Both the position numbers and the translations under genes were made by a program. The notes beneath the pieces were generated by a model, which did no database searches, was not told the DNA's origin, and saw nothing but the letters and a program-made list of their open reading frames with translations. A DNA stretch of 64,000 bases from an uncultured Planctomycetia bacterium (GTDB taxonomy: Bacteria > Omnitrophota > Gorgyraeia > 2-01-FULL-45-10): assembly GCA_964352425.1 (NCBI GenBank), contig CAYGRZ010000001.1:64672-128671 (forward strand), written 5' to 3'. Position 1 is the first letter of the stretch, and every line of letters starts with the position of its first letter. Below are positions 2,333 through 60,631 of this stretch, in pieces.

Positions 2333-3619
2333 ATGACACAGCTGGAGATGGCACGAGCCGGCAGGATATCCGCCGAGATGCGCCGCGTAGCGAAAGACGA
2401 AGCCTTAAGCGTCGAGTTCATCCGTCGCGGCATTGCGGCAGGGCGCATCGTCATCCCGAAGAACTGTCTTCGCCGCGTCGCGAAACCATGCGGCATAGGC
2501 TCAGGTCTCAAGACGAAGATCAACGCGAATATCGGGACGTCGAAAGGCCAGTCGAATATAGCGCGAGAGCTCAGGAAGATGGATGCCGCGGTCGGGCTGG
2601 GCTCCGATACGATAATGGACCTCTCGACCGGTAGAGACATAGCCGGGACCAGGCGCAGGATACTTCGAGCGGCAACGGTGCCGGTCGGCACGGTCCCTAT
2701 TTACGAGATCGTGATAAACGGCCTTAAGAAATACGGCCGTATAAAGGATATCACTGTCGCTGAGATGCTCGCCGTATTGGAGGTACAGGCCAAAGACGGC
2801 GTCGACTTCTTCACGATCCACGCAGGCGTCGTTCGTAGTGCGCTCGCTTCTTTGCGCGCCAACCCAAGGCTGCTCGATATCGTAAGCAGGGGCGGCGCAT
2901 TCCTCGCGCAGTGGATGATAGAGAACGCTCAGGAGAACCCGTTTTACACGCGTTTTGACGCCGTCATCGATATCGCGAGAAAATATGACGTCACGCTGAG
3001 CCTGGGCGACGGCCTGAGGCCGGGCGCCATCGCCGATGCAACCGACTGCCCGCAGGTCCTGGAACTGCTCACGCTGGGCCAGCTGCAGAAGAAGGCGACC
3101 AGGAGGGGCGTACAGGTCATGATAGAAGGCCCCGGCCACGTTCCACTCAATCAGATCGAGGCGAATGTTGTGATGGAGAAGGCGCTCTGTAGCGGCGCCC
3201 CGTTCTATGTGCTCGGACCGCTCGTCACAGATATCGCGCCCGGCTACGACCATATCACCGCGGCCATAGGCGGCGCGCTCGCGGGCGCGAAAGGCGCCGA
3301 CTACCTGTGTTATGTGACGCCGGCTGAACACCTGCGGCTGCCGACGCTTGACGATGTAAAAGAGGGCGTGATCGCGACCAAGATAGCCGCTCACGCGGCG
3401 GACGTCGCGAAGGGGCTGAAAGGCGCCATCGACCGTGATATCGCCATATCGAAAGCGCGCCGCGCGCGGGACTGGAAGCGACAGTTCGCGCTCGCGATAG
3501 ACAAGGTTAAGCCGACAAAGTACAGACGCTCGTCGCGGCCGGGCAGCAAAGACGTATGTACCATGTGCGGCGAATACTGCTCCATCAAAGTCGCCGATAC
3601 GTGTTTTGGGAGGAAATAA
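2333..3619 (+). CDS. thiC: phosphomethylpyrimidine synthase (radical-SAM ThiC)
   Basis: 428 aa; ThiC-type sequence with C-terminal CTMCGEYCSIK Fe-S motif; ATG directly after the thiE stop. Confidence 0.9.
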   Translation: MTQLEMARAGRISAEMRRVAKDEALSVEFIRRGIAAGRIVIPKNCLRRVAKPCGIGSGLKTKINANIGTSKGQSNIARELRKMDAAVGLGSDTIMDLSTGRDIAGTRRRILRAATVPVGTVPIYEIVINGLKKYGRIKDITVAEMLAVLEVQAKDGVDFFTIHAGVVRSALASLRANPRLLDIVSRGGAFLAQWMIENAQENPFYTRFDAVIDIARKYDVTLSLGDGLRPGAIADATDCPQVLELLTLGQLQKKATRRGVQVMIEGPGHVPLNQIEANVVMEKALCSGAPFYVLGPLVTDIAPGYDHITAAIGGALAGAKGADYLCYVTPAEHLRLPTLDDVKEGVIATKIAAHAADVAKGLKGAIDRDIAISKARRARDWKRQFALAIDKVKPTKYRRSSRPGSKDVCTMCGEYCSIKVADTCFGRK

Positions 3620-3642
3620 ATTTTTCGGCTACCCGGGGCGGT

Positions 3643-3660
3643 GAACTTTTGGGCACTCGC
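3643..3660. repeat. repeat module A (aacttttgggcactcgc), copy 1; copy 2 at 11298..11316, same orientation
   Basis: Identical 17-mer downstream of the thiC stop and downstream of the dgt stop. Confidence 0.6.
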
Positions 3661-3688
3661 CTCCGGCTGAGGATCGCGAAAATCTTCC

Positions 3689-3822
3689 GGGTCCTGCCGC
3701 TCGGTCGCCTTTCGGCGCTCGCGCGGGGTTCACAAGCGATGAGCTGACAGGCGGGTGTCTGTACTGCCCCATCCCGCGCTTCGCACCTCAAGGCTGGACC
3801 GAGCGTCACCCGTAAGATTTTC
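3689..3822. repeat. ~135 bp repeat module B, copy 1 (inverted relative to copy 2 at 11462..11650)
   Basis: Reverse complement of 3689-3822 aligns at ~80-85% identity with 11462-11595, sharing a core ...gcgggatggggcagtacagacacccgcctgtcagc...gtgaaccccgcgcgagcgc... Confidence 0.7.
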
Positions 3823-3856
3823 GCCTGCATATGATGATATCGGCAGTGCACAAAAG

Positions 3857-3886
3857 TTCCGCCACTCGAGGAAGCCGAATAATTTC
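3857..3886. repeat. repeat module C (ttccgccactcgaggaagccgaataatttc), copy 1; copy 2 at 11371..11400, same orientation
   Basis: ~30 bp near-identical segment in both loci. Confidence 0.55.
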
Positions 3887-3951
3887 TAAGAGTGGCTGAA
3901 GAATTGCTCCAGATACCGTCTCGGCTGTGAGGATGCTATAGGAGAAGTGAT

Positions 3952-4188
3952 ATGCCAGGGTATAGAGCTGATCCAGAAGAGATAAAAAAGGTGTTTTTAA
4001 TAGTTATTGGCATTTTCTTTTTTATAATAGGCGTTTTTTTTATTTTGCAACTTACCGGAGTTGCAAATATGGAGATATTTCGTAGTTCCGGTTTGGACTG
4101 GCTAAGAATTCTCTTATTTGTAATCGTAGTTATTCTGATTCTTTCTTTAGTATTTGGTATTTTGAAGAAGTTGTACGGTGATGAATAG
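3952..4188 (+). CDS. small two-TM membrane protein (hypothetical) in an AT-rich island
   Basis: 78 aa with two strongly hydrophobic helices; GGAG RBS 8 nt upstream of the ATG; local GC well below the window average. Confidence 0.4.
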   Translation: MPGYRADPEEIKKVFLIVIGIFFFIIGVFFILQLTGVANMEIFRSSGLDWLRILLFVIVVILILSLVFGILKKLYGDE

Positions 4189-4556
4189 CAAGGGGAGTGG
4201 CCATCCCGCGATAGAAGGGAAGTTTCTAGTATTTGAGATGGTCGCAGGCGGCGGGACTTTTGCGCGAAGCCTGAAGCGGCGAATTTAAGACCTATGCCGA
4301 TGTTATGTGAGCACAATGAAAATGTTAGGTCTTTTGTGAAGAAGAAAAAGGGTTATATATAAGGATTTTTCCATATTAAAAGAACCGAGGATGCCCGAGG
4401 CCGCTTCCATGCGGCCGAGTTCCGCAGGTTCCCCTTTTTCGACTGAGCAAAAGACCGACCTCGAGCGAAGCGAGAGGGAACATTTTCGCTGCCACCTTTT
4501 AGGAGGCTTGTGCGAACATAGCGAGGCATAGGTCTGGAAACAAAAAAAGGATAGCG

Positions 4557-5456
4557 ATGAGCATTCTGGTAATAGGATCGGTGGCGCTTGATTCGGTGCA
4601 GACGCCATTCGGGAAAAAGACGGAAGTGCTCGGAGGGTCGGCGACGTTCTTCTCTCTCGCGGCATCATTCTTCAACAAGGTCGATATCGTGGCGACCGTC
4701 GGCGAGGACTTCCCGAAGCGGTACGTGACGATGTTCAGGAACAAGGGGATAGGTACCGTTGGGCTTACCGTATCGAAAGGCGAGACCTTCAGATGGAAGG
4801 GCCGCTACGACTACGATCTGAATACCGCGCACACGATATCGACGCACCTCAACGTATTCAGGGACTTCGACCCGCAGGTCCCCAGGCACCTGCGCTCGCC
4901 CGATTTCCTGTTCCTGGCAAACATTGACCCGGACCTTCAATACCGGGTTCTGCAGCAGGTCAAGCGCCCCCGGCTTGTCGCGTGCGATTCGATGAATTAC
5001 TGGATAGCCACGAAGCGCAAATCGCTCGAGCGGCTGCTCGACAAGATCGACATCCTGCTCCTGAACGACGCCGAGGCGCGGCAGCTGAGCGGTGAATCCA
5101 ACCTGATCAGGGCCGCGCGGCTCGTCATATCGTTCGGGCCGAAGGCGGTCATCATCAAGCGGGGAGAGCACGGCGTCCTTTACTTCTCCAAGAAAGCCCA
5201 TTTCGTTGCGCCGGCATACCTTCTCGATACGATATGCGATCCCACTGGCGCAGGCGATACGTTCGCGGGCGGCATGATGGGTTATTTAAGCAGGTCGAAG
5301 GTTGTAGATGACGCACGCATCAGGAAGAGCATCATTTACGGGAGCATCATGGCTTCGTTCACTGTCGAGGATTTCAGCGTAAACAGGCTCCTCGAGATAT
5401 CGAAGAAGGACATACGGGGCCGGTTCGATCATTTCAGGAGCATAACGAAATATTAA
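4557..5456 (+). CDS. PfkB-family carbohydrate/nucleoside kinase (ribokinase-like)
   Basis: DPTGAGDTFAGG PfkB signature and an N-terminal GG motif. Confidence 0.85.
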   Translation: MSILVIGSVALDSVQTPFGKKTEVLGGSATFFSLAASFFNKVDIVATVGEDFPKRYVTMFRNKGIGTVGLTVSKGETFRWKGRYDYDLNTAHTISTHLNVFRDFDPQVPRHLRSPDFLFLANIDPDLQYRVLQQVKRPRLVACDSMNYWIATKRKSLERLLDKIDILLLNDAEARQLSGESNLIRAARLVISFGPKAVIIKRGEHGVLYFSKKAHFVAPAYLLDTICDPTGAGDTFAGGMMGYLSRSKVVDDARIRKSIIYGSIMASFTVEDFSVNRLLEISKKDIRGRFDHFRSITKY

Positions 5457-5484
5457 AGCGGTCTGCTGTGCGGGCGAGCGTAGT

Positions 5485-5531
5485 TTCCGCCTTCGCCTTT
5501 TCTTGTTAGGCTGCGAGAGGCTTCGGCGGAC
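5485..5531. repeat. 47 bp GC-rich repeat (ttccgccttcgcc-N19-gaggcttcggcggac), copy 1; copy 2 at 6480..6525
   Basis: Both 13-mer and 15-mer arms are identical with an 18-19 nt spacer; the copies flank tRNA-Gly and the LysM/M23 gene. Confidence 0.6.
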
Positions 5532-5592
5532 TTCGCCATGAATAGAGTGATGTGGGGTTTAGGCTTGCACACTATGCTATTGAAATATTTAA

Positions 5593-5666
5593 GCGAGCGT
5601 AGTTCAATGGTAGAATACTAGCTTCCCAAGCTAGATACGGGGGTTCGATTCCCCTCGCTCGCTCCA
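5593..5666 (+). tRNA. tRNA-Gly (anticodon CCC)
   Basis: Cloverleaf folds by hand: acceptor GCGAGCG/CGCTCGC, D-stem GTTC/GAAT, anticodon stem CTAGC/GCTAG with loop TTCCCAA, T-arm GGGGG-TTCGATT-CCCCT, 3' CCA encoded. Near-identical in pattern to E. coli glyU. Confidence 0.9.
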
Positions 5667-5681
5667 GTTTTACCGAAAGAG

Positions 5682-6428
5682 ATGAAGATGAAGGTAATTA
5701 TTATTATAGTGTCGGCCCTTGCGCTCGCCGGATGCGCGACGACACACCAGCGCACATACACCTGCGCTACGCCGGTGTATTCCCATGAATACGACTCGGT
5801 GAACCTCGCTCCGACTGTCGGGGGCCTCCAGCCGATGGCGCCTGCGCAAGTTCGTCATACCGTACGGCCCGGCGAGACGCTCTGGGGCATCTCGAAGGCA
5901 TATGATGTCGATCTCGACGACCTCGTGAAGGCTAACTCGATAAAGGATACAGGCTCGATCGAAAAAGGTCAGATCCTGGCCATACCCGGCAGGGCGCGGT
6001 CCGGGCCTGTAGCAAGGGCCGCCACGACCACCTATGCGCGGTCACGATCCGCGGTCTCTTTTGTCTGGCCGGTAAAGGGCGCTGTTCTGTCCCGTTTCGG
6101 ATCGACCGCCGACAAGGTCGTGAATAAAGGCATCGATATCAAAGCGAATGAAGGCTCAGGCGTTGCCGCCTCCCGGGAGGGGAAGGTCGTGTTTTGCGAT
6201 GAATATCTGAAAGGGTTCGGCAAGACCGTCATCATAGACCATATGGACGGCTACCAGACGGTCTACTCCTATAATTCTGATATTACCGTCAGGGTCGGCG
6301 ACACGGTCCGGCAGCGGGATGTGATCGCAAAGGTCGGTTCAAGCGGCCGCGCCCGGGTGTCGATGCTCCATTTCGAGATACGCAGGAACGGGGAGCCGCA
6401 GAACCCGGAGTTTTATCTGACGAAATAG
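5682..6428 (+). CDS. LysM-domain M23 metallopeptidase lipoprotein (NlpD-like)
   Basis: Signal peptide with lipobox LAGC; LysM (VRPGETLWGISKAYDVDLDDL); M23 motifs (KGIDIKA...IIDHMDGYQTVYSYN...HFEIRRNG). Confidence 0.85.
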   Translation: MKMKVIIIIVSALALAGCATTHQRTYTCATPVYSHEYDSVNLAPTVGGLQPMAPAQVRHTVRPGETLWGISKAYDVDLDDLVKANSIKDTGSIEKGQILAIPGRARSGPVARAATTTYARSRSAVSFVWPVKGAVLSRFGSTADKVVNKGIDIKANEGSGVAASREGKVVFCDEYLKGFGKTVIIDHMDGYQTVYSYNSDITVRVGDTVRQRDVIAKVGSSGRARVSMLHFEIRRNGEPQNPEFYLTK

Positions 6429-9648: not shown

Positions 9649-10119
9649 ATGGATAAGCTATGGGCCCCGTGGAGGAGCAAATACATATATCTGCGCAAGA
9701 TTAAGGCCTGTATATTCTGCGGCGCCAAGTATGCCCGCGACCACAAGGCACGGTATATACTTGAGCGCTCAGGCCATTCGTTTTCGATGCTGAACCTGTA
9801 TCCTTACAACAACGGCCATGTGATGGTCGCGCCGTACCGGCACGTATCGAGCCTTGAACTCCTGTCTGAAGAAGAGCTCGCCGACCTGATACGGCTGGTG
9901 AACGCTGCGAAAAGAGAGATCGACAGGAAGATGAAGCCCCACGGGTACAACATCGGATGGAACCTGGGCAAGGTCGCCGGCGCGGGGTTTTCCGGCCATG
10001 TCCATGTGCATATAGTGCCGCGCTGGACCGGCGATACCAACTTCATACCGGTCATCGGCAACACGAAGGTTGTCTCGGAATCGCTCGACGCGATGTACGC
10101 TCTCCTCAAAAAGAGATAA
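9649..10119 (+). CDS. HIT-family protein (HxHxHxx; Ap4A-phosphorylase/GalT-like branch)
   Basis: HVHVHIVPRW histidine triad and an N-terminal CIFC motif; the ATG at 9649 is preceded by a GAGGAG RBS. Confidence 0.8.
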   Translation: MDKLWAPWRSKYIYLRKIKACIFCGAKYARDHKARYILERSGHSFSMLNLYPYNNGHVMVAPYRHVSSLELLSEEELADLIRLVNAAKREIDRKMKPHGYNIGWNLGKVAGAGFSGHVHVHIVPRWTGDTNFIPVIGNTKVVSESLDAMYALLKKR

Positions 10120-10123
10120 GGCC

Positions 10124-11275
10124 ATGCTGAAGAGAAGGGACCTCGAAAAGAAGGAAAGCCTCCTCGCCCCGTATGCGCAGAAGAGCCGCATGACGAAGGG
10201 AAGGGTCTACAAGGAACCTGAGCACGGCTACAGGTCATGTTACCAGCGTGACCGTGACCGGATCATCTATTCGACCGCGTTCCGCAGGCTTGAATACAAG
10301 ACGCAGGTCTTCGTGAACCACGAGGGCGATTATTACCGGACGCGGCTCACGCACACGCTCGAGGTCAGCCAGATAGCCCGCGCGATAGCGCGCGCGCTGA
10401 AACTGAACGAGGACCTTGTCGACGCGATAAGCCTCGCCCACGACCTCGGCCACACCCCATTCGGCCATTCGGGCGAAGATGCCTTGAACGAGATGATGAA
10501 ATCCCACGGCGGGTTCGAACATAACGCCCAGGGCCTGAGGGTCGTCGACATCCTTGAGCAGCGCTACCCGGATTTCCCCGGCCTCAATCTCACGCATGAG
10601 GTAAGGGAAGGCATCATACGGCACTCCACCGCATACGACCGTCCGCACCCTGTCGTGCCGTTCACTACGAAAGGTTCGCCGCTCCTGGAGATTCAGGTCG
10701 TCGATATCGCCGACGAGATCGCGTACGATAATCACGATCTTGACGACGGCATCACGAGCGGCCTTATCAAGGAATCTGACCTGCGGCATATTAAGTTGTG
10801 GGCCGACAAGAAGAGAGCGATCGAGAAGAAGTACCGCTCGATCAAGGACGAGATACGGAAGTATCAGATCATCCGCTCGCTGATAAACGAGCAGGTCACC
10901 GATGTCATCTTCCGGACCGAGGCGAACATCCGCAGGCGCCGGGTCCGGTCGGCGGCTGATGTGGCGAAGATACCCGAAAGGATCGTCACGTTCTCGGACA
11001 CTATGCGGCTCTTGCGCCTGCCGATGCGCGAATTTCTCATCAAGGGCCTCTACCAGCATTACCGGGTCGTCAGGATGGCCAACAAGGCTTACCGCTTCAT
11101 AGAGAGCCTGTTCAATATTTATCTCGATAAGCCGGAGCAGCTTCCGCCGGGGACCCAGTCGAGGCTGAAGATTGAGTCAAAGCACCGCGTGATATGCGAT
11201 TACATCGCCGGCATGACCGACCGCTATGCGCTGGACGAGTACAAGAAGTTCTTTGAGCCGTACGAGAGGGTGTAA
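10124..11275 (+). CDS. dgt: dGTP triphosphohydrolase (Dgt-family HD phosphohydrolase)
   Basis: YRTRLTHTLEVSQIARAIA...HDLGHTPFGH HD motif, Dgt-like N-terminus; starts 5 nt after the HIT stop. Confidence 0.85.
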   Translation: MLKRRDLEKKESLLAPYAQKSRMTKGRVYKEPEHGYRSCYQRDRDRIIYSTAFRRLEYKTQVFVNHEGDYYRTRLTHTLEVSQIARAIARALKLNEDLVDAISLAHDLGHTPFGHSGEDALNEMMKSHGGFEHNAQGLRVVDILEQRYPDFPGLNLTHEVREGIIRHSTAYDRPHPVVPFTTKGSPLLEIQVVDIADEIAYDNHDLDDGITSGLIKESDLRHIKLWADKKRAIEKKYRSIKDEIRKYQIIRSLINEQVTDVIFRTEANIRRRRVRSAADVAKIPERIVTFSDTMRLLRLPMREFLIKGLYQHYRVVRMANKAYRFIESLFNIYLDKPEQLPPGTQSRLKIESKHRVICDYIAGMTDRYALDEYKKFFEPYERV

Positions 11276-11405
11276 TTTTTCCGCTTTTATCAGGGCGTTA
11301 ACTTTTGGGCACTCGCTTTTATTAGTTGAGCAAGCCCTTGCGGCCTGGGGGGATGGGGGCACGCTAAAAGCTCCGCCGCTCGAGGAAGCAGAAATATTTG
11401 TGGTA

Positions 11406-11434
11406 GGGCAGGTGAGCGAAAAGCGAACCTGCCC
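11406..11434. repeat. hairpin-repeat family member (stem GGGCAGG/CCTGCCC, loop tgagcgaaaagcgaa)
   Basis: Same conserved loop family as the copies at 11615, 18267 and 36439. Confidence 0.5.
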
Positions 11435-11461
11435 GATGAGGGGCTTAGGGCGAGCAAATTT

Positions 11462-11650
11462 TTACGGGTGACGCGAGGGGGCCTTGAGAAGCGCACAAGC
11501 GAGCGCGGGATGGGGCAGTACAGACACCCGCCTGTCAGCATGTCACTTGTGAACCCCGCGCGAGCGCGGAGCATCGCAAAGGACACCGAGCGGCACCTCG
11601 ACAAGCTCGGTGCTCGCCCTGAGCGAAGTCGAAGGGCGGCAGGACCCGTA
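11462..11650. repeat. ~135 bp repeat module B, copy 2 (carries a ~45 bp hairpin insertion at 11596-11640)
   Basis: Aligns to the reverse complement of 3689-3822; the flanks ggcaggacccg..aaaattt match across the insertion. Confidence 0.7.
11615..11638. repeat. hairpin-repeat family member (stem CGCCC/GGGCG, loop tgagcgaagtcgaa)
   Basis: Conserved 14-nt loop with a covarying stem. Confidence 0.55.
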
Positions 11651-11713
11651 AAAATTTCCTGCGACCCTGGCCTGTTACTAACAAGAGCCAGGGCAGACAA
11701 GCGGAAGGCAGCC

Positions 11714-11860
11714 ATGAAGTTTCTGATCATTACGGTATTGGCGTTAATGCTGTCCGGGTGCTCCAGCATCCGGATCAAGGAAGGCGGGCTCGCCGTCGGT
11801 AAAGATACGACTGCGACTGTGGACGACGTGGGAGTGGCGAGGGTGACCAACCAGTTCTGA
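11714..11860 (+). CDS. small lipoprotein (48 aa, hypothetical)
   Basis: MKFLIITVLALMLSGCSS lipobox signal peptide; internal start of ORF 11468..11860, whose upstream part lies on the repeat. Confidence 0.45.
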   Translation: MKFLIITVLALMLSGCSSIRIKEGGLAVGKDTTATVDDVGVARVTNQF

Positions 11861-11950
11861 CCCCTGCCGGGCGTATATAGCCTTCACGAAAAAGGCGTCC
11901 AAATAGGCGTTGACACGGCTTAAGCGTTCGCCGTATAATCGTTTACCGGC

Positions 11951-13480
11951 ATGGAAGAGACAAAGAACCATACTTATCAGAGGGAACTGTTCGACAGGCT
12001 GAAGAAGAGCCCCAGCCTCAAGAAGGCCCAGGAGTGCTTCGGCTGTGTCATCAAGCCGGCCGCGTGGTGGATCGTCGAAAAGCCCAGCCCGAAATTCGCG
12101 GACGTGCAGAAGCTCATCTGCGGCAACTGCCCCTCGGTAAAGAGATCATCCCCCAGGCAACTGCGCCAATGCGTGAAAGAAGTCCTCGGGATGCTTGCCG
12201 GGGCCGCCGAAGAGAAGCGGCTGATCAAGTTCGACTGCCCTGAAGGCATGCACGGGTTTATATGCCCGGTCATTCAGGCAGATAAGATATTCGGCTACCT
12301 GGGCGCCTGCTACGCCAAGAAAGAGATCTCGCCGCAGGTGCTTGAGATTTTCTCAGCGTTCATCGCCACGATCGTCAAAGAGGTGCAGAAGGAGCTGGAG
12401 CTCTCAAAGCTGTATGAGACGCTTCGGCCGCGCGCGATAGCCCTCTCGACCGTTCACACCGTCCACCGCCTGATCAGCTCGACGCTGGACTTAAACGAGC
12501 TGCTGCCGCGCATCGCGAGGCTTTCGCTCCAGGTCATGAGGGCCAACCGCTGTTCGATAAAGCTCGTCGACTCGAAGCGCAAGGTCCTGCTGCCGAAAGT
12601 CACCGTCGACCTCAGGGAAAAGAACATCAGGCTGAAGAAGGTGAAGGTTGGCAGGTGGGCGCCGGGCAAGGCCGTCAAGTTCGGCAGGCCGATACGCGGC
12701 CGCGACTACCTGGCCACACCGCTCATCGACGAGGACGTGATCGGCGTCATAACATTGTATGACAAGATCGACAAGAAGCCGTTCAGCATATTCGACCAGG
12801 AGATCATGTCGACTATGACCGAGCAGGCGGTCATAGCGATAAAGAACGCCCAGCTGTACAAGGAGCAGGAGAAGCTGACGATGGGCACGATCAAGGCGCT
12901 GGCCAAGGTGCTCGATACGCGCGCGCCCGGGACGTACATACCGCGCGCCTCATTTATAAAGATCACCCTTGCGATCGGGCAGGAGCTGCACATGGACAGC
13001 GACAGCCTGAAGAGCCTCCAGTACGCTTCGATCCTGCACGATGCCGGCGAAATATTCGTGCCCGAGGCCGTTCTCGCCAAGCCGGCGAAACTGACCGGCG
13101 CGGAGTACGATATGGTCAAGGAGCACCCGGCCGCGGGAGTCGAGATAATCAAACACATGAAGGCGCTCAAATCCGCAACGCCTATCATCCTGTACCACCA
13201 TGAAAATTACGACGGCACCGGATATCCGAAAGGCCTGAAGAAGGACCAGATACCGCTCGGCGCCAGGATTATGGCCGCGGTCAGCGCATTCGAAGCGATG
13301 ATAACGATGAAACCTTACAGGGTGACGAAGACGCTCGATGAGGCGATCGATGAGATAAAGGCCAACGCCGGCACCCAGTTCGACCCGAAAGTGGTCGAGG
13401 TGTTCCTGAAAGTGACAAAGAAGAAGGATATAAGGGCATTGCTCGAGAAAGAATTGTATGGACCTAAACCGGCTGCTTAA
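11951..13480 (+). CDS. GAF-domain HD-GYP phosphodiesterase (c-di-GMP) with a Cys-rich N-terminus
   Basis: HD...HHENYDGTGYPKGL HD-GYP signature with a GAF region upstream. Confidence 0.85.
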   Translation: MEETKNHTYQRELFDRLKKSPSLKKAQECFGCVIKPAAWWIVEKPSPKFADVQKLICGNCPSVKRSSPRQLRQCVKEVLGMLAGAAEEKRLIKFDCPEGMHGFICPVIQADKIFGYLGACYAKKEISPQVLEIFSAFIATIVKEVQKELELSKLYETLRPRAIALSTVHTVHRLISSTLDLNELLPRIARLSLQVMRANRCSIKLVDSKRKVLLPKVTVDLREKNIRLKKVKVGRWAPGKAVKFGRPIRGRDYLATPLIDEDVIGVITLYDKIDKKPFSIFDQEIMSTMTEQAVIAIKNAQLYKEQEKLTMGTIKALAKVLDTRAPGTYIPRASFIKITLAIGQELHMDSDSLKSLQYASILHDAGEIFVPEAVLAKPAKLTGAEYDMVKEHPAAGVEIIKHMKALKSATPIILYHHENYDGTGYPKGLKKDQIPLGARIMAAVSAFEAMITMKPYRVTKTLDEAIDEIKANAGTQFDPKVVEVFLKVTKKKDIRALLEKELYGPKPAA

Positions 13481-18217: not shown

Positions 18218-18253
18218 CGGTTATAACGGAAGACAGTAGAAGTCCTTCGGCGG

Positions 18254-18288
18254 GCTCAGGACATATATCCTGAGCGAAGTCGAAGGAT
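18254..18288. repeat. overlapping alternative hairpins: GCTCAGGA-catata-TCCTGAGC (18254-18275) and ATCC-tgagcgaagtcgaa-GGAT (18267-18288)
   Basis: Sits immediately 5' of the RBS (agaaggagg) of the 18302 gene; the conserved loop-family member shares CCTGAGC with a mutually exclusive upstream stem. Confidence 0.5.
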
Positions 18289-36349: not shown

Positions 36350-36426
36350 TATATGATAAGCTCAAAGACAATGATGTCTTCCCGCTATGATAGCCGGAAG
36401 GCGTTTGTGTGTTTATCCTTCGACAG

Positions 36427-36468
36427 GCTCAGGATAAACACCCTGAGCGAAGTCGAAGGGTGTTTTAT
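36427..36468. repeat. alternative hairpins in the nadE leader: GCTCAGG-ataaacac-CCTGAGC (36427-36448) versus CACCC-tgagcgaagtcgaa-GGGTG (36439-36462) plus TTTTAT
   Basis: Member of the conserved-loop hairpin family; the second hairpin is followed by a U-tract (terminator-like). Confidence 0.5.
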
Positions 36469-46164: not shown

Positions 46165-49100
46165 ATGAAGGACCAGCGAAGACCGGACAGGCAGGGCTTA
46201 TACGACCCGTCGTTCGAGCACGATGCGTGCGGGGTCGGATTCGTCTGCAATATCGCCGGTGCCGCATCGAATGAGATTGTCCGGCAGGGGATCGATGTCC
46301 TGAAGCGCCTGTCCCATCGCGGCGCCACGGGCGCCGACCCGAAGACGGGTGACGGCGCCGGCATCCTCATCCAGATGCCTCACGAGTTTCTCGCGCATGC
46401 CTGCTCCGCCATAGGCATACAGCTCCCGCCAAAGGGCGGCTACGGCACGGGGCTCATATTCCTGCCCGCGCAGGACGACGAGCGCACATTCTACAAACAG
46501 ACCATCGAGAAGGCGGCCGCCGAAGAGGGGCAGAAGGTCCTGGGATGGCGTACCGTGCCTGTAGACGATTCAGACATCGGCACCACTGCCAAAGAGACGA
46601 AACCTGCCATCGAGCAGATCTTCATAGCCAGGAGCGCCGACATCGCCGACACATTAGCGTTCGAGCGCGCGCTCTATATCATCCGTAAGAAGGCGGAGAA
46701 TGCCGTTTGCGAATCGGCGATCGCTCATAAATCGTTCTTCTACATCACCAATCTTTCGGCGAGGACGATCTCCTATAAAGGCCTCCTGATGCCGGGCCAG
46801 GTCGACGGCTTCTTCCTTGACCTCAAGGACCCGCTTGTGAAGAGCGCCATTTGCCTTGTGCATTCGCGCTACAGCACGAACACGTTTCCTACATGGGACC
46901 TCGCGCAGCCTTTCCGTTTCATAGCTCACAACGGCGAGATCAATACCCTGCGCGGCAACATCAACTGGATGAAGGCGCGCGAGAGCCTTCTGGAAAGCGA
47001 GCTCTTTGGTAAGAACCTGAAGAATATCAAGCCGGTCATCGTTCCGGGCGGCAGCGATTCGGCGACCATAGATAATGTCTTTGAGCTGTTGGCATTGTCC
47101 GGCAGAAGCCTGTCGCACGTAATGATGATGCTGATCCCGAGCGCGTGGGAACGCAATCTCTCTATAGACGCCAAGCAGCGCGACTTCTACAAATATCACG
47201 CCTGCGTCATGGAACCGTGGGACGGCCCGGCAGCCATTGTATTTACCGATGGCACGAGGGTAGGCGCGGTCCTCGACCGGAACGGTTTGAGACCGGCGCG
47301 CTATATTATTACGAAGAACGGCGTCGCGGTGATGGCGTCAGAGGCAGGCGTGATAGACATACCTCCGCAGGATATAGCACACTCGGGCAGGCTTGAACCA
47401 GGCAGGATATTCTTTATCAACACGGATGACAGTCGCATCATACATGACGACGAGCTGAAATCAATAATGGCGAAGAAACAGCCCTATGGCCAGTGGCTGA
47501 AAGAAGCCTTAGTCGAGCTCGAGGACGTTGCCGCGCACAAAGGCACAGGCCGCAGCAAAGCCGGTGACGATGTCTTCACGCTCATGCAGGCATTCGGCTA
47601 TACCAGAGACGACATGAAATACATCCTTAAACCCATGGCTCAGGACGGTAAAGAGCCTATCGGGTCGATGGGGAATGACACGCCGCATGCGCTTCTTTCG
47701 ATGAGGCCTCAGCTTTTGTACGCCTATTTCAAACAACTCTTCGCGCAGGTCACCAATCCGCCAATCGACCCCATACGGGAAGAATGTGTCATGAGCCTCG
47801 ACAGCTACATCGGGCCGCAGAAGAATCTACTCTCAGAGAGCCCGAAGCACTGCCATAAGCTGCATGTCAAAACGCCTGTCCTGACAAATGAAGAGCTGGA
47901 AAAGATACGCCATATTAAGGAGAACAGTTTCAGGACGAAGACGATATCGACTCTCTTTGCGCCGGACAATGAAAAGAACCTCTCCACCGCGCTCGACCGC
48001 GTGTGTGCCGAGGCGGAGGCGGCGATCGCTCATGGGTACAGCTTCATAATCCTGAGCGACAGGAACGTCGGCAGCGACGCCGCGGCTTTACCCGCCCTTG
48101 CCGTGATAGGCGCTGTCCATCACCACCTCGTGCGCAAGGCGCTCAGGACGCATATCGGGATCATCATAGAAAGCGGCGAGCCAAGGGAGGTACATCATTT
48201 CGCACTCCTCTTCGCATACGGCGCTGACTGCGTGAACCCGTATCTGGCGTATGACGCAGTATCATATCTTATTGAAACGAAAGAGCTTGATCTGGACAGG
48301 AAGAAAGCGCTCAATAATTACCGCCATGCCGTAGAGCACGGTATCCTGAAGATCATTTCGAAGATGGGCATCTCGACGCTCCAAAGCTACCGGGGCGCCC
48401 AGATATTTGAAGCGCTCGGTCTGCATGATGAAGTCATAGAGAAATGCTTTGAAGGGACCGTATCGAGGATAGGCGGCGCGCGGCTCGAGACGATCGCGAA
48501 AGAGACGATAGCCCGACACCGCGTGGCATATCCGGACGTGCCCTATAGGGCACCGATACTTGAAACCGGCGGCCTCTACCAGTACAAGATGGATGGCGAG
48601 TTCCACATGTGGAATCCGGACACGATCGCGAGCCTCCAGGACGCGACGCGGGAGAATGATTACAATAAATACAGGCAGTTCGCCAAACTTGTCAACGACC
48701 AGTCAAACTACCCGACGACGCTGCGCGGTCTTTTACAGTTCAAACAGGGCACGCCCGTTCCCATAGAAGAGGTCGAGCCCGTAGAATCAATATTCAAGCG
48801 GTTCGCGACAGGCGCCATGAGTTTCGGTTCCATTTCGAAGGGCGCACATGAGACGCTGGCGATCGCCATGAACAGGATAGGCGGCCGCTCGAATACAGGC
48901 GAAGGAGGGGAGGACCCTGCAAGGTTCTCGCCTCTGGCAAACGGAGATTCTACACGGAGTGCCATCAAGCAGGTCGCCTCAGGCAGGTTCGGCGTCACGA
49001 CGAATTACCTGGTCAATGCCGACGAACTGCAGATCAAGATAGCGCAGGGCGCGAAACCCGGTGAAGGCGGGCAGCTGCCCGGCCATAAAGTGAGCGCGAT

Positions 49101-50700
49101 AATAGCGCGTACACGCTATACTACGCCGGGCGTGACTTTAATATCGCCTCCACCACACCATGACATCTATTCGATCGAAGACCTGGCGCAGCTCATCTTT
49201 GACCTGAAGAACGTCAATCCCAGGGCGCGCATAAGCGTGAAGCTCGTATCGGAGGCCGGTGTCGGCACCGTCGCTGCCGGCGTCGCAAAAAGCCGCGCCG
49301 ACATGATACTGATCTCGGGCGGCGACGGCGGGACCGGGGCATCGCCCTTAAGCTCGATCAAACATGCAGGCCTCCCGTGGGAACTCGGCCTTTCCGAGAC
49401 ACACCAGACGCTGGTCCTCAATGACTTGAGAAGCCGCGTGCGGCTGCAGACGGACGGACAGATGAGGACGGGCAGGGACGTTGCCATCGCCGCACTCCTA
49501 GGCGCCGAGGAATACGGGTTCTGTACTGCCGCGCTCATCGTCCTCGGCTGCGTCATGCTGCGCCACTGCAACCTGAACAACTGCTCCGTCGGCGTCGCGA
49601 CACAGGACGATATCCTGCAGAAGCGGTTCCGCGGCAGGCCCGAATATATAATCAATTACCTGACCTTCGTTGCCCAGGAACTGCGCGAGATCATGGCCTC
49701 TCTTGGTTTCAGGACGGTCGACGAGATGATCGGCAGGACGGACCTCCTGGAAGTGAATACCGGGATACTGCCGTGGAAGGCGCAGGCAATTGATTTTTCA
49801 AAGATATTGCATAAACCCGATGTCAGGCCAGGCGTCGCTACGCATTGCACTATCAAACAGGACCATGTTATAGAGCAGATACTCGACCGAAAACTTATTG
49901 AAATGGCAAAAGCCGCCATCGACGAAGGCTGTCCTGTCAGGGTAGAGCTCGATATAACCAACCGCGACAGGGCCACAGGCGCTCACCTAAGCGGCGAGAT
50001 CTGCGCTCGCCACGGCGAGGAGGGCCTCCCTGAGGATTCCGTTCATTGCTTGTTCAAAGGCATTGCAGGCCAGAGCTTCGGGGCGTGGTTGACGAGGGGT
50101 GTGACATTCGAGCTTGAGGGGATGGCCAATGACTACGTCGGCAAGGGCATATCCGGCGGCAGGATCATCATATATCCGGACAAGAAATGCGGTTATAAAC
50201 CGGAGGAGAACGTTATCATAGGCAATACCGCCTTCTATGGCGCTATCAACGGCGAGGCATATATACGGGGAGTTGCCGGCGAGCGGTTCTGCATACGCAA
50301 CTCCGGCCTCAACGCCGTTGTCGAGGGCGTCGGCGACCACGGCTGCGAATACATGACCGGCGGAAGGATCGTGGTGCTTGGCCGCACGGGCAGGAACTTC
50401 GGGGCGGGCATGTCCGGCGGCATCGCGTACGTCTACGATGCAGACGGCACATTCAAGGATAAGTGCAATATGGAGATGGTGGAACTCGAACGGGCTTCCG
50501 TCGATGACGAGATCACGGTCAGGGAACTGGTGACCAACCACTATAAGGCAACGGGAAGCACCGTAGCGAAGAAGGTGCTTGGTGATTTCACGAACAGTAT
50601 GAAGCACATGGTCAAGGTGATGCCTATTGAATACAAGCGCGTGCTGGGCTCAAAAGAGATAGAGGCCTCGATGGACCTCTCAGAGGTGTACGATGGGTGA
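46165..50700 (+). CDS. gltB: glutamate synthase large subunit
   Basis: 1511 aa; N-terminal amidotransferase CGVGFV; FMN and Fe-S domains. Confidence 0.9.
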   Translation: MKDQRRPDRQGLYDPSFEHDACGVGFVCNIAGAASNEIVRQGIDVLKRLSHRGATGADPKTGDGAGILIQMPHEFLAHACSAIGIQLPPKGGYGTGLIFLPAQDDERTFYKQTIEKAAAEEGQKVLGWRTVPVDDSDIGTTAKETKPAIEQIFIARSADIADTLAFERALYIIRKKAENAVCESAIAHKSFFYITNLSARTISYKGLLMPGQVDGFFLDLKDPLVKSAICLVHSRYSTNTFPTWDLAQPFRFIAHNGEINTLRGNINWMKARESLLESELFGKNLKNIKPVIVPGGSDSATIDNVFELLALSGRSLSHVMMMLIPSAWERNLSIDAKQRDFYKYHACVMEPWDGPAAIVFTDGTRVGAVLDRNGLRPARYIITKNGVAVMASEAGVIDIPPQDIAHSGRLEPGRIFFINTDDSRIIHDDELKSIMAKKQPYGQWLKEALVELEDVAAHKGTGRSKAGDDVFTLMQAFGYTRDDMKYILKPMAQDGKEPIGSMGNDTPHALLSMRPQLLYAYFKQLFAQVTNPPIDPIREECVMSLDSYIGPQKNLLSESPKHCHKLHVKTPVLTNEELEKIRHIKENSFRTKTISTLFAPDNEKNLSTALDRVCAEAEAAIAHGYSFIILSDRNVGSDAAALPALAVIGAVHHHLVRKALRTHIGIIIESGEPREVHHFALLFAYGADCVNPYLAYDAVSYLIETKELDLDRKKALNNYRHAVEHGILKIISKMGISTLQSYRGAQIFEALGLHDEVIEKCFEGTVSRIGGARLETIAKETIARHRVAYPDVPYRAPILETGGLYQYKMDGEFHMWNPDTIASLQDATRENDYNKYRQFAKLVNDQSNYPTTLRGLLQFKQGTPVPIEEVEPVESIFKRFATGAMSFGSISKGAHETLAIAMNRIGGRSNTGEGGEDPARFSPLANGDSTRSAIKQVASGRFGVTTNYLVNADELQIKIAQGAKPGEGGQLPGHKVSAIIARTRYTTPGVTLISPPPHHDIYSIEDLAQLIFDLKNVNPRARISVKLVSEAGVGTVAAGVAKSRADMILISGGDGGTGASPLSSIKHAGLPWELGLSETHQTLVLNDLRSRVRLQTDGQMRTGRDVAIAALLGAEEYGFCTAALIVLGCVMLRHCNLNNCSVGVATQDDILQKRFRGRPEYIINYLTFVAQELREIMASLGFRTVDEMIGRTDLLEVNTGILPWKAQAIDFSKILHKPDVRPGVATHCTIKQDHVIEQILDRKLIEMAKAAIDEGCPVRVELDITNRDRATGAHLSGEICARHGEEGLPEDSVHCLFKGIAGQSFGAWLTRGVTFELEGMANDYVGKGISGGRIIIYPDKKCGYKPEENVIIGNTAFYGAINGEAYIRGVAGERFCIRNSGLNAVVEGVGDHGCEYMTGGRIVVLGRTGRNFGAGMSGGIAYVYDADGTFKDKCNMEMVELERASVDDEITVRELVTNHYKATGSTVAKKVLGDFTNSMKHMVKVMPIEYKRVLGSKEIEASMDLSEVYDG

Positions 50701-59185: not shown

Positions 59186-60631
59186 ATGAACCCTAAGATT
59201 ATTTTACTGGCAGCGGTTTTCGTTCCGATTACAGGCTCATTCTTTCTTCCTGTTATCGGCAGGCTGTCTGAGCGCATCAGGAACTTTTGCGCACTCGGCC
59301 TTGTGCTCACATCCCTGATCGCCTCGTGCACGCTTATACCATCGGTCCTGTCCGGCAATACCACAACGTTCACCCTGAACCTGCCCTTAGGATTCAATCT
59401 CATCCTTACCGCTGACTGCCTTGCAGTCTTCATGGCCATAACATCGTCGCTTATCGGTGCTATCATAGTCCTATACTCTTTTGATTACATCAGCCACTAC
59501 GACAACCGCAACGAGTACTACTTCATGGTCGCGCTCTTCCTCGGCTCGATGATGGGCATCGTCTTTTCGGGCAATCTCATATTCCTGTATATATTCTGGG
59601 AGATCACCGCGCTGGCGAGCTGGCGGCTCATCGGGTTCTTCAGGGAAAAGCGTTATGTCATGAAGGCGGACAAGGCCTTCCTCGTCACCGTTTCCGGCGC
59701 CCTGGCAATGCTGATCGGATTCATCATCATATTCTCCCAGACAGGGTCGTTCGACCTTGCCGTCATCCGACAGGGCCTGCAGGGAAGGGCTCTTCCCAAT
59801 ATCGCTGTGCTCCTGATACTCTTCGGCATACTCTCGAAGTCAGCGACGCTTCCGTTCCACACGTGGCTGCCGGATGCCGGCGTCGCTCCGTCACCGGTGA
59901 CCGCGCTCCTGCATGCCGCCATCCTCGTAAAGATAGGCGTCTACGTATTCGCGCGGCTCTTCATAGCGACATTCACCGTAAGCGCGATATGGCACACCGT
60001 GATCCCTGTCATAGCAGCCGTAAGCGCTCTCGTATCTGCCGGCGCCGCGCTTGTAGAAACGGATATGAAGCGCATAATCGCGTATTCGACCGTGAGCCAG
60101 ATCGCCTTCATATTTTTGGGGTTTGCCGTGGGCAACGAAGTCGGCATCGCCGGCGCTCTCCTGTATATACTGATGCACGGCCTGGCAAAGGGGGGACTCT
60201 TCCTGTGCGCAGGCATAGTCGAGCAGAACACGCACACCAAAGACATAACGAAGATGGGAGGCCTCATCACGACGATGCCGGTGACGGCCATATCATTCCT
60301 TGCCTGTGCATTCTCTGTCATGGGCATACCGCCGTTCGGCGGCTTCTTCTCAAAATACCTGGTCTTTTCCGGCGCTGTTACAGCCGATCATATGTGGATA
60401 ACGATCACGTTCCTTTTTGGCGCGGTCCTGACCATACTCTACCTCTTTCGGATATTTAACCACATATTCCTGTATGCGAACGATTCACAGACGCTCGATG
60501 CAAAGGAGGGGTCGCGCGTGATGGTCGCCTCGGTCGCCATCCTCGCGGTGCTGTCACTTGCGTGCGGTATCTATATACAATATCCGGCGGGTTTCGTCCA
60601 GACGACTGTCAAATATATGCTGGGTCTATAA
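59186..60631 (+). CDS. NuoN/MnhD/HyfB-family proton-conducting antiporter-like membrane subunit
   Basis: 481 aa, ~14 TM, complex-I antiporter-subunit signature (HTWLPDA, AYSTVSQ). Confidence 0.8.
   Translation: MNPKIILLAAVFVPITGSFFLPVIGRLSERIRNFCALGLVLTSLIASCTLIPSVLSGNTTTFTLNLPLGFNLILTADCLAVFMAITSSLIGAIIVLYSFDYISHYDNRNEYYFMVALFLGSMMGIVFSGNLIFLYIFWEITALASWRLIGFFREKRYVMKADKAFLVTVSGALAMLIGFIIIFSQTGSFDLAVIRQGLQGRALPNIAVLLILFGILSKSATLPFHTWLPDAGVAPSPVTALLHAAILVKIGVYVFARLFIATFTVSAIWHTVIPVIAAVSALVSAGAALVETDMKRIIAYSTVSQIAFIFLGFAVGNEVGIAGALLYILMHGLAKGGLFLCAGIVEQNTHTKDITKMGGLITTMPVTAISFLACAFSVMGIPPFGGFFSKYLVFSGAVTADHMWITITFLFGAVLTILYLFRIFNHIFLYANDSQTLDAKEGSRVMVASVAILAVLSLACGIYIQYPAGFVQTTVKYMLGL

Follow-up and report, generated by a model that had tools for sequence, protein, structure and literature searches.

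Probable hairpin-forming interspersed repeats of the MITE/REPIN kind in a mosaic of palindromic elements behind thiC and dgt of an uncultured Omnitrophota lineage

Results

The window, by which we mean the whole 64-kb stretch of Omnitrophota DNA analysed here, carries on its + strand genes identified by Pfam as encoding ThiE (1664-2332), ThiC (2333-3619, stop codon TAA at 3617-3619) and a dGTPase-like HD protein (dgt, 10070-11275), and the two repeat loci of this study lie directly behind thiC (locus 1) and dgt (locus 2). Since homologs of the dgt product are 383 aa long, its true start probably lies 18 codons later than called. Named homologs of ThiC and the dGTPase at 70-84% identity all come from Omnitrophota/Omnitrophica MAGs. 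Among GTDB species representatives, the closest ThiC reaches just 56% identity, and 80 species-genome loci retrieved by ThiC, with that same top identity, held no match to the repeats; the lineage thus appears to be poorly represented among species genomes. For comparison of gene order we used L099, 21 kb of a 732-kb contig from MAG GCA_023818895.1, which encodes an 84% identical dGTPase and is collinear with window positions 1-20,600 at about 70% nucleotide identity. Promoter and terminator scans detected no canonical terminator near the stop-codon-adjacent repeats, and no promoter-like or terminator-like sites inside the elements. Despite the thiD2-thiE-thiC cluster, no TPP riboswitch was reported window-wide at Rfam gathering thresholds, and the leader of the cluster may be located upstream of the window.

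The initial annotation described a modular repeat at these loci, in which modules A and C keep the same orientation at both places and a core, module B, matches as reverse complement only. A repeat finder and blastn bore out each of these orientations, with A matching directly at 95% (3641-3660 versus 11297-11316) and C at 85% (3852-3885 versus 11366-11399). The accompanying picture of collinear flanks around a flipped core does not hold, because at locus 2 some 70 nt separate A (11298) from C (11371), and B follows downstream of the pair. Locus 1 reads A, B, inverted A, C, whereas locus 2 reads A, degenerate inverted A, C, module D hairpin, reversed B, so that B is inside the A...C unit at the first locus and outside it at the second.

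A and C instead form the two halves, inner and outer, of a terminal inverted repeat (~45 nt) that belongs to a second, outer palindromic element, since 3618-3657 (through A) is the inverted complement of 3845-3885 (inverted A plus C) and since the aligned ends yield one consensus terminus. This alignment drew on the window and seven other loci and took in 15 termini (8 left ends and 7 reverse-complemented right ends), with the consensus AAATTTTTCGGCTTTTC..AGGGG..GAACTTTTGGG.GC..GCC. At locus 1, the composite of the outer element with B nested in it spans 3618-3885 and begins at the thiC stop codon. Its left terminal repeat (3618-3661, + strand) contains module A, a GC-stem hairpin with loop ACTTTTGGGCAC (3637-3661, + strand), and its right terminal repeat (3841-3885, - strand) consists of the inverted module-A hairpin (3841-3863) followed by module C; the two arms match in inverted orientation at 78% over 41 nt by blastn, and the repeat finder reported 3643-3657/3845-3859. 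At locus 2, an intact outer element without B (11274-11399) begins at the dgt stop codon, with B 50 nt downstream of the element, and an orthologous copy lies behind dgt in a relative whose dgt is 95% identical (L098). Between this element and B sits the module D hairpin (GGGCAGGT...ACCTGCCC; 29 nt, 11406-11434). Module D adjoins the same B end in metagenome locus L005 (94% over 50 nt), B plus module D forming a block common to that locus and window copy 2.

The thiC-pfkB gap (3620-4556, 937 nt) contains, besides the composite, an AT-rich 78-codon ORF and, at 4247-4456, repeat debris that includes a module-A-type hairpin with loop ACTTTTGCGCGA (4247-4271) and a 129-nt palindrome (4328-4456). 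The ORF (3952-4188, + strand) encodes two hydrophobic stretches, has neither a Pfam match nor a counterpart in L099, and is possibly cargo or a spurious ORF. ThiC ends two residues earlier here than in L099 (FGRK* versus FGKAVS*) and its TAA lies within the outer terminal repeat, which may supply the thiC stop codon. Elsewhere, a module-A-like word (ACTTTTGCGCAC, one mismatch) occurs in a GC-stem context at 59283-59294, just within the predicted start of ORF 59186-60631; that start may be miscalled, or a repeat may reach into the gene.

B is longer than first described. Its left end (3678-3700) recurs at 11636-11658, past an insertion, and copy 2 therefore spans 11453-11660 (208 nt, - strand, apex at 11503-11561, with a hairpin insertion inside); copy 1 spans 3676-3824 (149 nt, + strand, apex at 3721-3779) and forms a near-perfect rod-like hairpin. 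Formal alignment upheld the similarity of the two copies, as blastn within the 64-kb window paired 3695-3821 with 11456-11595 (76.8% identity, 142 columns with gaps counted, E 2e-26). The 80-85% identity originally given is slightly too high for the whole module and too low for the core, where 3712-3780 and 11502-11570 match in inverted orientation at 93% over 69 nt. A blastn search with word size 7 found no further B-like sequence in the window. From its ends inward, the element comprises terminal inverted repeats of 14-17 nt, a pair of complementary arms (about 45 nt each) and an asymmetric apex of 59 nt. The termini (GAAAATTTTACGGGTCCTGCCGC) pair at 3676-3692/3808-3824 (17 nt, 94%) and at 11453-11469/11644-11660 (94%); in window copy 2 and in metagenome copies L004 and L009 they match without error over 14 bp.

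Copy 1 folds at -77.7 kcal/mol on the + strand (z = -6.0) and at -83.5 kcal/mol on the - strand (z = -7.0). Strand asymmetry of folding and G-U content, considered as a test of RNA versus DNA, showed no consistent difference, and the two strands fold equally well. The gaps between B copies measure 7, 8, 9 and 46 nt, none of them a multiple of three, and B is therefore non-coding; with the hairpin folds, which make B strongly structured, these gap lengths agree with its earlier description as a non-coding and probably structured element. Protein look-up of a spurious ORF over B gave no record. The Rfam scan that had been proposed placed B in no family: at gathering thresholds a single tRNA was the sole match in the whole window, and at E <=10 the region 3560-3960 gave only a chance match to snoR60 (15.6 bits versus a threshold of 40).

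The 45-bp insertion noted in copy 2 is indeed a member of a hairpin family. It amounts to 46 extra nt, made up of a 40-nt hairpin (11596-11635) and a duplicated GCGGCA (6 bp; 11590-11595 and 11636-11641), and at the corresponding position copy 1 carries GCGGCA just once (the reverse complement of 3695-3700), an empty site. Two more copies lie in the window, at 18243-18287 (flanked by TAGAAG on both sides) and at 36417-36459 (flanks GTGTTTAT / GTGTTTTAT), so that direct repeats of 6-8 bp flank 3/3 window copies; a further copy occurs in metagenome locus L006, at a different position within B. Because of the filled/empty pair and the repeats that flank the other window copies, insertion of the 40-nt hairpin with a 6-8-bp target duplication, and with it the arrival of repeats in these gaps by insertion, can be read directly from the sequence.

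Several further features of the small hairpins were observed. In 2/3 of them the loop approximates the reverse complement of the flanking repeat (ATAAACAC versus GTGTTTAT, 36409-36468; TGCTCGC versus GCGGCA, 11590-11641), giving the layout X - arm - X' - arm' - X, in which alternative pairings can form; the third (loop ACATATAT, repeat TAGAAG) has no loop/repeat complementarity. The 18-nt arm CCTGAGCGAAGTCGAAGG has 109 exact occurrences, with unrelated flanks, in 101 IMG/VR stretches (L100-L200), where about 2 matches would be expected for a random 18-mer on a rough estimate of collection size. Its partner arm lies <=90 nt upstream in 18/101 stretches, and in 7/101 the arm is itself the loop of a perfect stem of at least 6 bp of locus-specific sequence (shuffled control, 1%). 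The arm belongs to no Rfam family and its sequence was not found in the literature searched; the hairpin looks like a very widespread, undescribed repeat module. Between 35574 and 36531, a hairpin-rich spacer of 244 nt follows the gene for a GAF-ANTAR regulator; the spacer contains one of the small hairpin repeats and might be an ANTAR target leader. Downstream of this spacer are an NAD synthase gene and a nitrogen block encoding a sigma-like protein, a PPDK-like protein, AmtB, P-II and type III GS, which continues with a large ORF (46165-50700) that we take to be GltB and a GltD-like oxidoreductase.

We searched for further members of the B family with exact 20-mer and 22-mer words from its apex. 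The 20-mer recovered 8 JGI metagenome contigs (L004-L011) that represent about 6 distinct copies and, together with those of the window, fall into three subtypes: I (window copy 1, L005), II (L004, identical to L008; L009; and L010, identical to L011) and III (window copy 2, L006, L007). Copies range in length from 149 to 233 nt, and window copy 2 is far closer to the copy in L007 (94.7% over 131 nt) than to window copy 1 (about 77%). The neighbours are unrelated housekeeping genes (ferritin/desulfoferrodoxin, deacetylase/heptosyltransferase, shikimate kinase/DprA, MTHFR/Rrf2, and a position upstream of pfkB), and relative to co-directional neighbour genes B points one way at 4 loci and the other way at 3. 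Counting copies and orientations had been suggested as a check on B, and in the metagenome contigs both counts, of about six distinct copies and of 4 versus 3 orientations, came out in favour of a multicopy repeat lying either way round. Exact searches gave 0 matches to the 22-mer in 185,579 species-representative genomes and 0 to the 20-mer in IMG/VR, and the composite as a whole had no blastn match among plasmids and phages.

Individual copies are often altered. In L010 the left half of B is replaced by another hairpin (TCTAACCAGGTTAGA...), in L006 and L007 the last ~12 nt are gone and the terminal repeats degraded, and L006 carries two internal insertions. Composite blocks are common to L004 and L009 (outer left arm plus B) and to L006 and L007 (B right end plus another hairpin), and could reflect recombination or assembly chimeras; the L007 copy itself sits in unique-looking sequence without an outer element. 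Reading the flanks by eye, we saw no target-site duplication at the B termini of any copy. No transposase, RAYT, Y1 or recombinase domain was present in about 47 scanned ORFs of the window or in the scanned ORFs of the B-bearing contigs, no parent insertion sequence with B-matching ends was found in the 64-kb window or the metagenome loci, and a literature search on the hairpin arm sequence and on Omnitrophota repeats returned nothing relevant.

Conservation within B is greatest at the apex, a 59-nt, almost invariant and asymmetric sequence (GCGCGGGGTTCACAA-N7-GCTGACAGGCGGGTGTCTGTACTGCCCCATCCCGCGC) in which a 9-bp closing helix (GCGCGGGGT/ATCCCGCGC) surrounds an asymmetric 41-nt interior that holds a small hairpin (GACAGGC-GGGT-GTCTGT). 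Leaving out the 20-mer with which the copies were found, 29/39 apex columns are invariant versus 49/112 arm columns (Fisher p = 0.0014), and the variable apex columns are confined to a 7-nt patch and two co-varying pairs. Such constancy is not usual in a purely selfish MITE and may point to a function tied to the sequence itself. By eye, we considered a self-cleaving ribozyme core in the apex and rejected it, as its CGATGAG stretch falls in the sole variable patch.

The arms vary in sequence and remain complementary. In a hand-fitted alignment of six full copies, two of them near-identical, restricted to four homologous helices plus the apex and with bulges and insertions removed, 90.5% of arm cells are paired, versus at most 49% with slid partners. 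Of 37 arm pairs in these copies, 9 have changed on both sides (shuffled mean 4.4, with 0/500 shuffles reaching 9), and none of the pairs in the six hand-blocked copies varies on one side only. Many of the double changes are transversions (AU/UA, GC/CG, GC/UA) that have no possible G-U intermediate. Comparison of window copy 1 with L004 and L009 gave eight double changes and zero mismatches in the three inner helices, the sole mismatch lying in the terminal helix of copy 1. Pairing is less strict in window copy 2, L005, L006 and L007, which have 1-4 mismatches in the three inner helices; by the middle helices, four of seven copies, with mosaic arms, carry 2-4 mismatches. The arms of these four copies look like mixtures of subtype arms. 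Because the double changes are largely transversions and both strands fold equally well, the complementarity reads as a DNA-level property, maintained through copying of one arm from the other or through a single-strand hairpin intermediate rather than through selection on one RNA strand.

Relatives differ in what occupies the orthologous sites. In L099, thiC overlaps pfkB by 4 nt (L099 4665-4668), where the window has 937 nt between them, and 20 nt after dgt come genes for a Zn-ribbon protein and then a STAS protein. Across the 21 kb of L099, blastn gave nothing significant for the two window gaps or the small hairpins, and exact matches to the B core, to the module-A loop and to the full hairpin arm were likewise absent. 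Since L099 lacks the whole thiC-pfkB gap, 3620-4556 is lineage-specific. A population with 89% identical ThiC has an outer-type element and a different repeat mosaic behind thiC, with no B, and B is missing behind thiC throughout the L092-L095 set. Conversely, the contig L007, the ortholog of window 4554-6209 with 92% identity in PfkB, carries a subtype III copy some 30 nt ahead of pfkB, at a place that is free of B in the window. We found no base-exact empty site for B, the flanks of L007 and the window upstream of pfkB being unalignable past ~35 nt. In the gap between dgt and the GAF/HD gene (window 11276-11869 versus L099 11153-12031), repeats and a 48-codon ORF with a lipoprotein signal (11714-11860) replace the Zn-ribbon and STAS genes, a gene replacement at a repeat-bearing site. 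From 11870 onward the window is again syntenic with L099; shortly after this point lies a perfect sigma-70 consensus promoter (TTGACA, 18 nt, TATAAT; 11910-11939, + strand) that precedes the GAF/HD-GYP-type gene (11951-13480) and whose motif is retained in L099.

Discussion

In this study, we examined two copies of a repeat, B, that lie in opposite orientation behind thiC and dgt. B is probably a non-autonomous, hairpin-forming interspersed repeat of the MITE/REPIN kind, its two window copies representing independent insertions. On the sequence comparisons made here, it would be best described as a new repeat family nested among other palindromic repeats in a BIME-like mosaic. We base this on direct observation of its anatomy, of multiple copies in unrelated intergenic contexts and in both orientations, of its absence at orthologous sites, of nesting and of arm co-variation. 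Of the two origins offered in the initial annotation, DNA inversion or recombination among mobile mini-repeats, the mobile mini-repeats are therefore upheld, by copies in unrelated gaps, by the two orientations and by filled/empty sites. As the window copies would be independent insertions of two subtypes, their opposite orientation needs no inversion and is expected for a near-palindromic element.

Our model predicts the following order of events. B copy 1 would have inserted into an older outer palindromic element at the thiC stop codon, and copy 2 beside an intact outer element behind dgt; copy 2 would later have been struck by the 40-nt hairpin mini-element, which duplicated 6 bp of target. 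B itself would be mobilised in trans by an enzyme encoded elsewhere. Since B lacks a target duplication and paired changes preserve the complementarity of its arms, the likeliest route would be a single-stranded hairpin intermediate, REPIN-like and served by a tyrosine/HUH transposase, in preference to a DDE transposase. Several observations count against the explanation as a whole: B is without a target duplication, the scanned ORFs of the window and of the B-bearing contigs include no transposase, RAYT or recombinase, the apex of B rather than its termini is most conserved, pairing is not uniform, the composite blocks common to different loci could come from recombination or assembly chimeras, and the co-variation count draws on six hand-blocked sequences, two of them nearly alike. 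Hairpins that follow stop codons are probably co-transcribed as 3' stem-loops, as a side effect and not as the reason for their existence.

One alternative is that B was spread and reshuffled by recombination or gene conversion among existing palindromes, as in a BIME-like mosaic, and never transposed by dedicated means. The many interchangeable modules around it, the arms that are mosaic between subtypes and the long composite blocks common to different loci (L004/L009; L006/L007; window copy 2/L005) would all follow from such exchange, although false composite joins at repeats can also come from metagenome assembly. We regard this alternative as unlikely, since it leaves unexplained how B first arrived at new intergenic sites, including the unique-looking sequence of L007, where the outer element is missing, and how the co-resident 40-nt hairpin came by its clean target duplications.

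Quite unlikely, too, is that B is a functional structured RNA family, an sRNA or 3'-UTR element under selection whose copies are paralogous genes rather than mobile DNA; on this view the arms would merely close the stem and the apex would do the work. An RNA would account for the near-invariant 59-nt apex, with two conserved G-U pairs on the B(+) strand, for arms that differ by 35-58% yet stay complementary, for the strong fold z-scores and for copies directly after stop codons with no canonical terminator detected. Yet B lies in both orientations relative to local transcription (4 versus 3 loci), has no promoter-like site in or beside it, and folds equally well on both strands, and its double changes are mostly transversions without G-U intermediates. 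Its copies are truncated, interrupted and nested, it has no Rfam match at E <=10, and it is missing from syntenic L099 and, as a 22-nt apex word, from 185,579 species-representative genomes.

It is highly improbable that site-specific or homologous inversion flips B between its own inverted repeats, the two loci being two states: 17-nt inverted repeats do bracket B, and Logan contigs from two runs of the same population both end at 3697 inside it, where heterogeneity could be the explanation, but the loci are different places rather than two states of one, B lies within the A...C unit at one and outside it at the other, A and C are arms of one element, the copies share only about 77% identity and represent different subtypes, the scanned window ORFs include no recombinase or invertase gene, and the break at 3697 lies 5 nt past the inverted repeat and has its like in other repeats at 4312, 4399 and 11628. 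The Logan contigs that carry the window's exact ThiC, PfkB and GAF/HD proteins end at these four positions, all in palindromic repeats, and the breaks could be an assembly effect or real population heterogeneity.

These findings remove a false lead, in that there is no phase-variable switch beside thiC or dgt, and they reveal an uncultured Omnitrophota lineage colonised by several small palindromic repeat families. The repeats separate genes once adjacent, as with thiC and pfkB, which overlap in a relative; they sit exactly at stop codons and nest mutually, break short-read assemblies of this lineage at fixed points, and create spurious ORFs. Concrete targets for studies of hairpin-repeat recognition are provided by the conserved apex of B and by the small hairpin's 18-nt arm, which some 100 IMG/VR contigs contain without mismatch.

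Among known systems, invertible switches of the Hin/Gin/fimS type resemble B in having a segment between short inverted repeats that is found in two orientations. In such switches the same flanks surround both orientations and a recombinase is nearby; the two orientations of B occur at two loci with different immediate flanks, at about 77% identity and with no adjacent recombinase, which excludes B from this class. BIMEs and BOX elements are mosaic intergenic repeats made of several small modules. As in these, short palindromic modules combine here in varying order and orientation within one intergenic gap, namely the outer arms (ACTTTTGGGCAC loop), module D, the TCTAACCAGGTTAGA hairpin, the 40-nt hairpin and B, and it is this combination of several palindromic modules in one gap that gave the initial impression of a modular repeat. 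The module sequences are not known to be related to those of BIMEs and BOX, however, and the 40-nt hairpin, with its target duplications, behaves as a separate insertion.

MITEs, taken as defined in PMC3184786, offer a closer comparison. B has terminal inverted repeats, is small (<~400 bp), multicopy and without a transposase gene, and has filled and empty orthologous sites (L099, L092-L095, L007); flanking target duplications are found at the nested 40-nt hairpin but not at B. Like ERIC/Correia-type MITEs (Delihas 2011, PMC3184786), B measures 100-200 bp, with terminal inverted repeats and a long stem-loop, is intergenic, often just 3' of genes and in either orientation, occurs as internal indel variants and is missing from orthologous sites of relatives. 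ERIC-like and Correia MITEs are flanked by TA target duplications (PMC3184786), whereas B is without any, and we found no sequence similarity between B and these elements.

REPINs are REP doublets that form hairpins and are moved by RAYT tyrosine transposases, encoded by a single-copy gene that the same repeats flank (Bertels & Rainey 2011, PMC3116915). Like B, they are extragenic, ~100-150-nt elements in which two inverted arms and a spacer form one long hairpin, with compensatory changes in the arms, with clusters that arise from insertion in or next to existing copies, with subtypes within a genome or lineage, and with no obvious target duplication (PMC3116915). They differ in belonging to Proteobacteria, where B is in Omnitrophota; the arms of B are not recognisable REPs with a GTAG-type tag, and no RAYT gene was seen among the ORFs scanned in the 64-kb window. 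Conservation, moreover, is reversed: in REPINs the terminal REPs are best conserved and the spacer least (PMC3116915), whereas in B the central apex is conserved above the arms. It is conceivable, if rather doubtful, that an apex carried on pairing-only arms serves as the site which a single-strand hairpin transposase or recombinase of Omnitrophota, so far undescribed, recognises, or that it is a small RNA riding on a mobile hairpin. If this were true, B would represent the first REPIN-like host-element system described in Omnitrophota, and one of opposite architecture, with a conserved centre and free arms.
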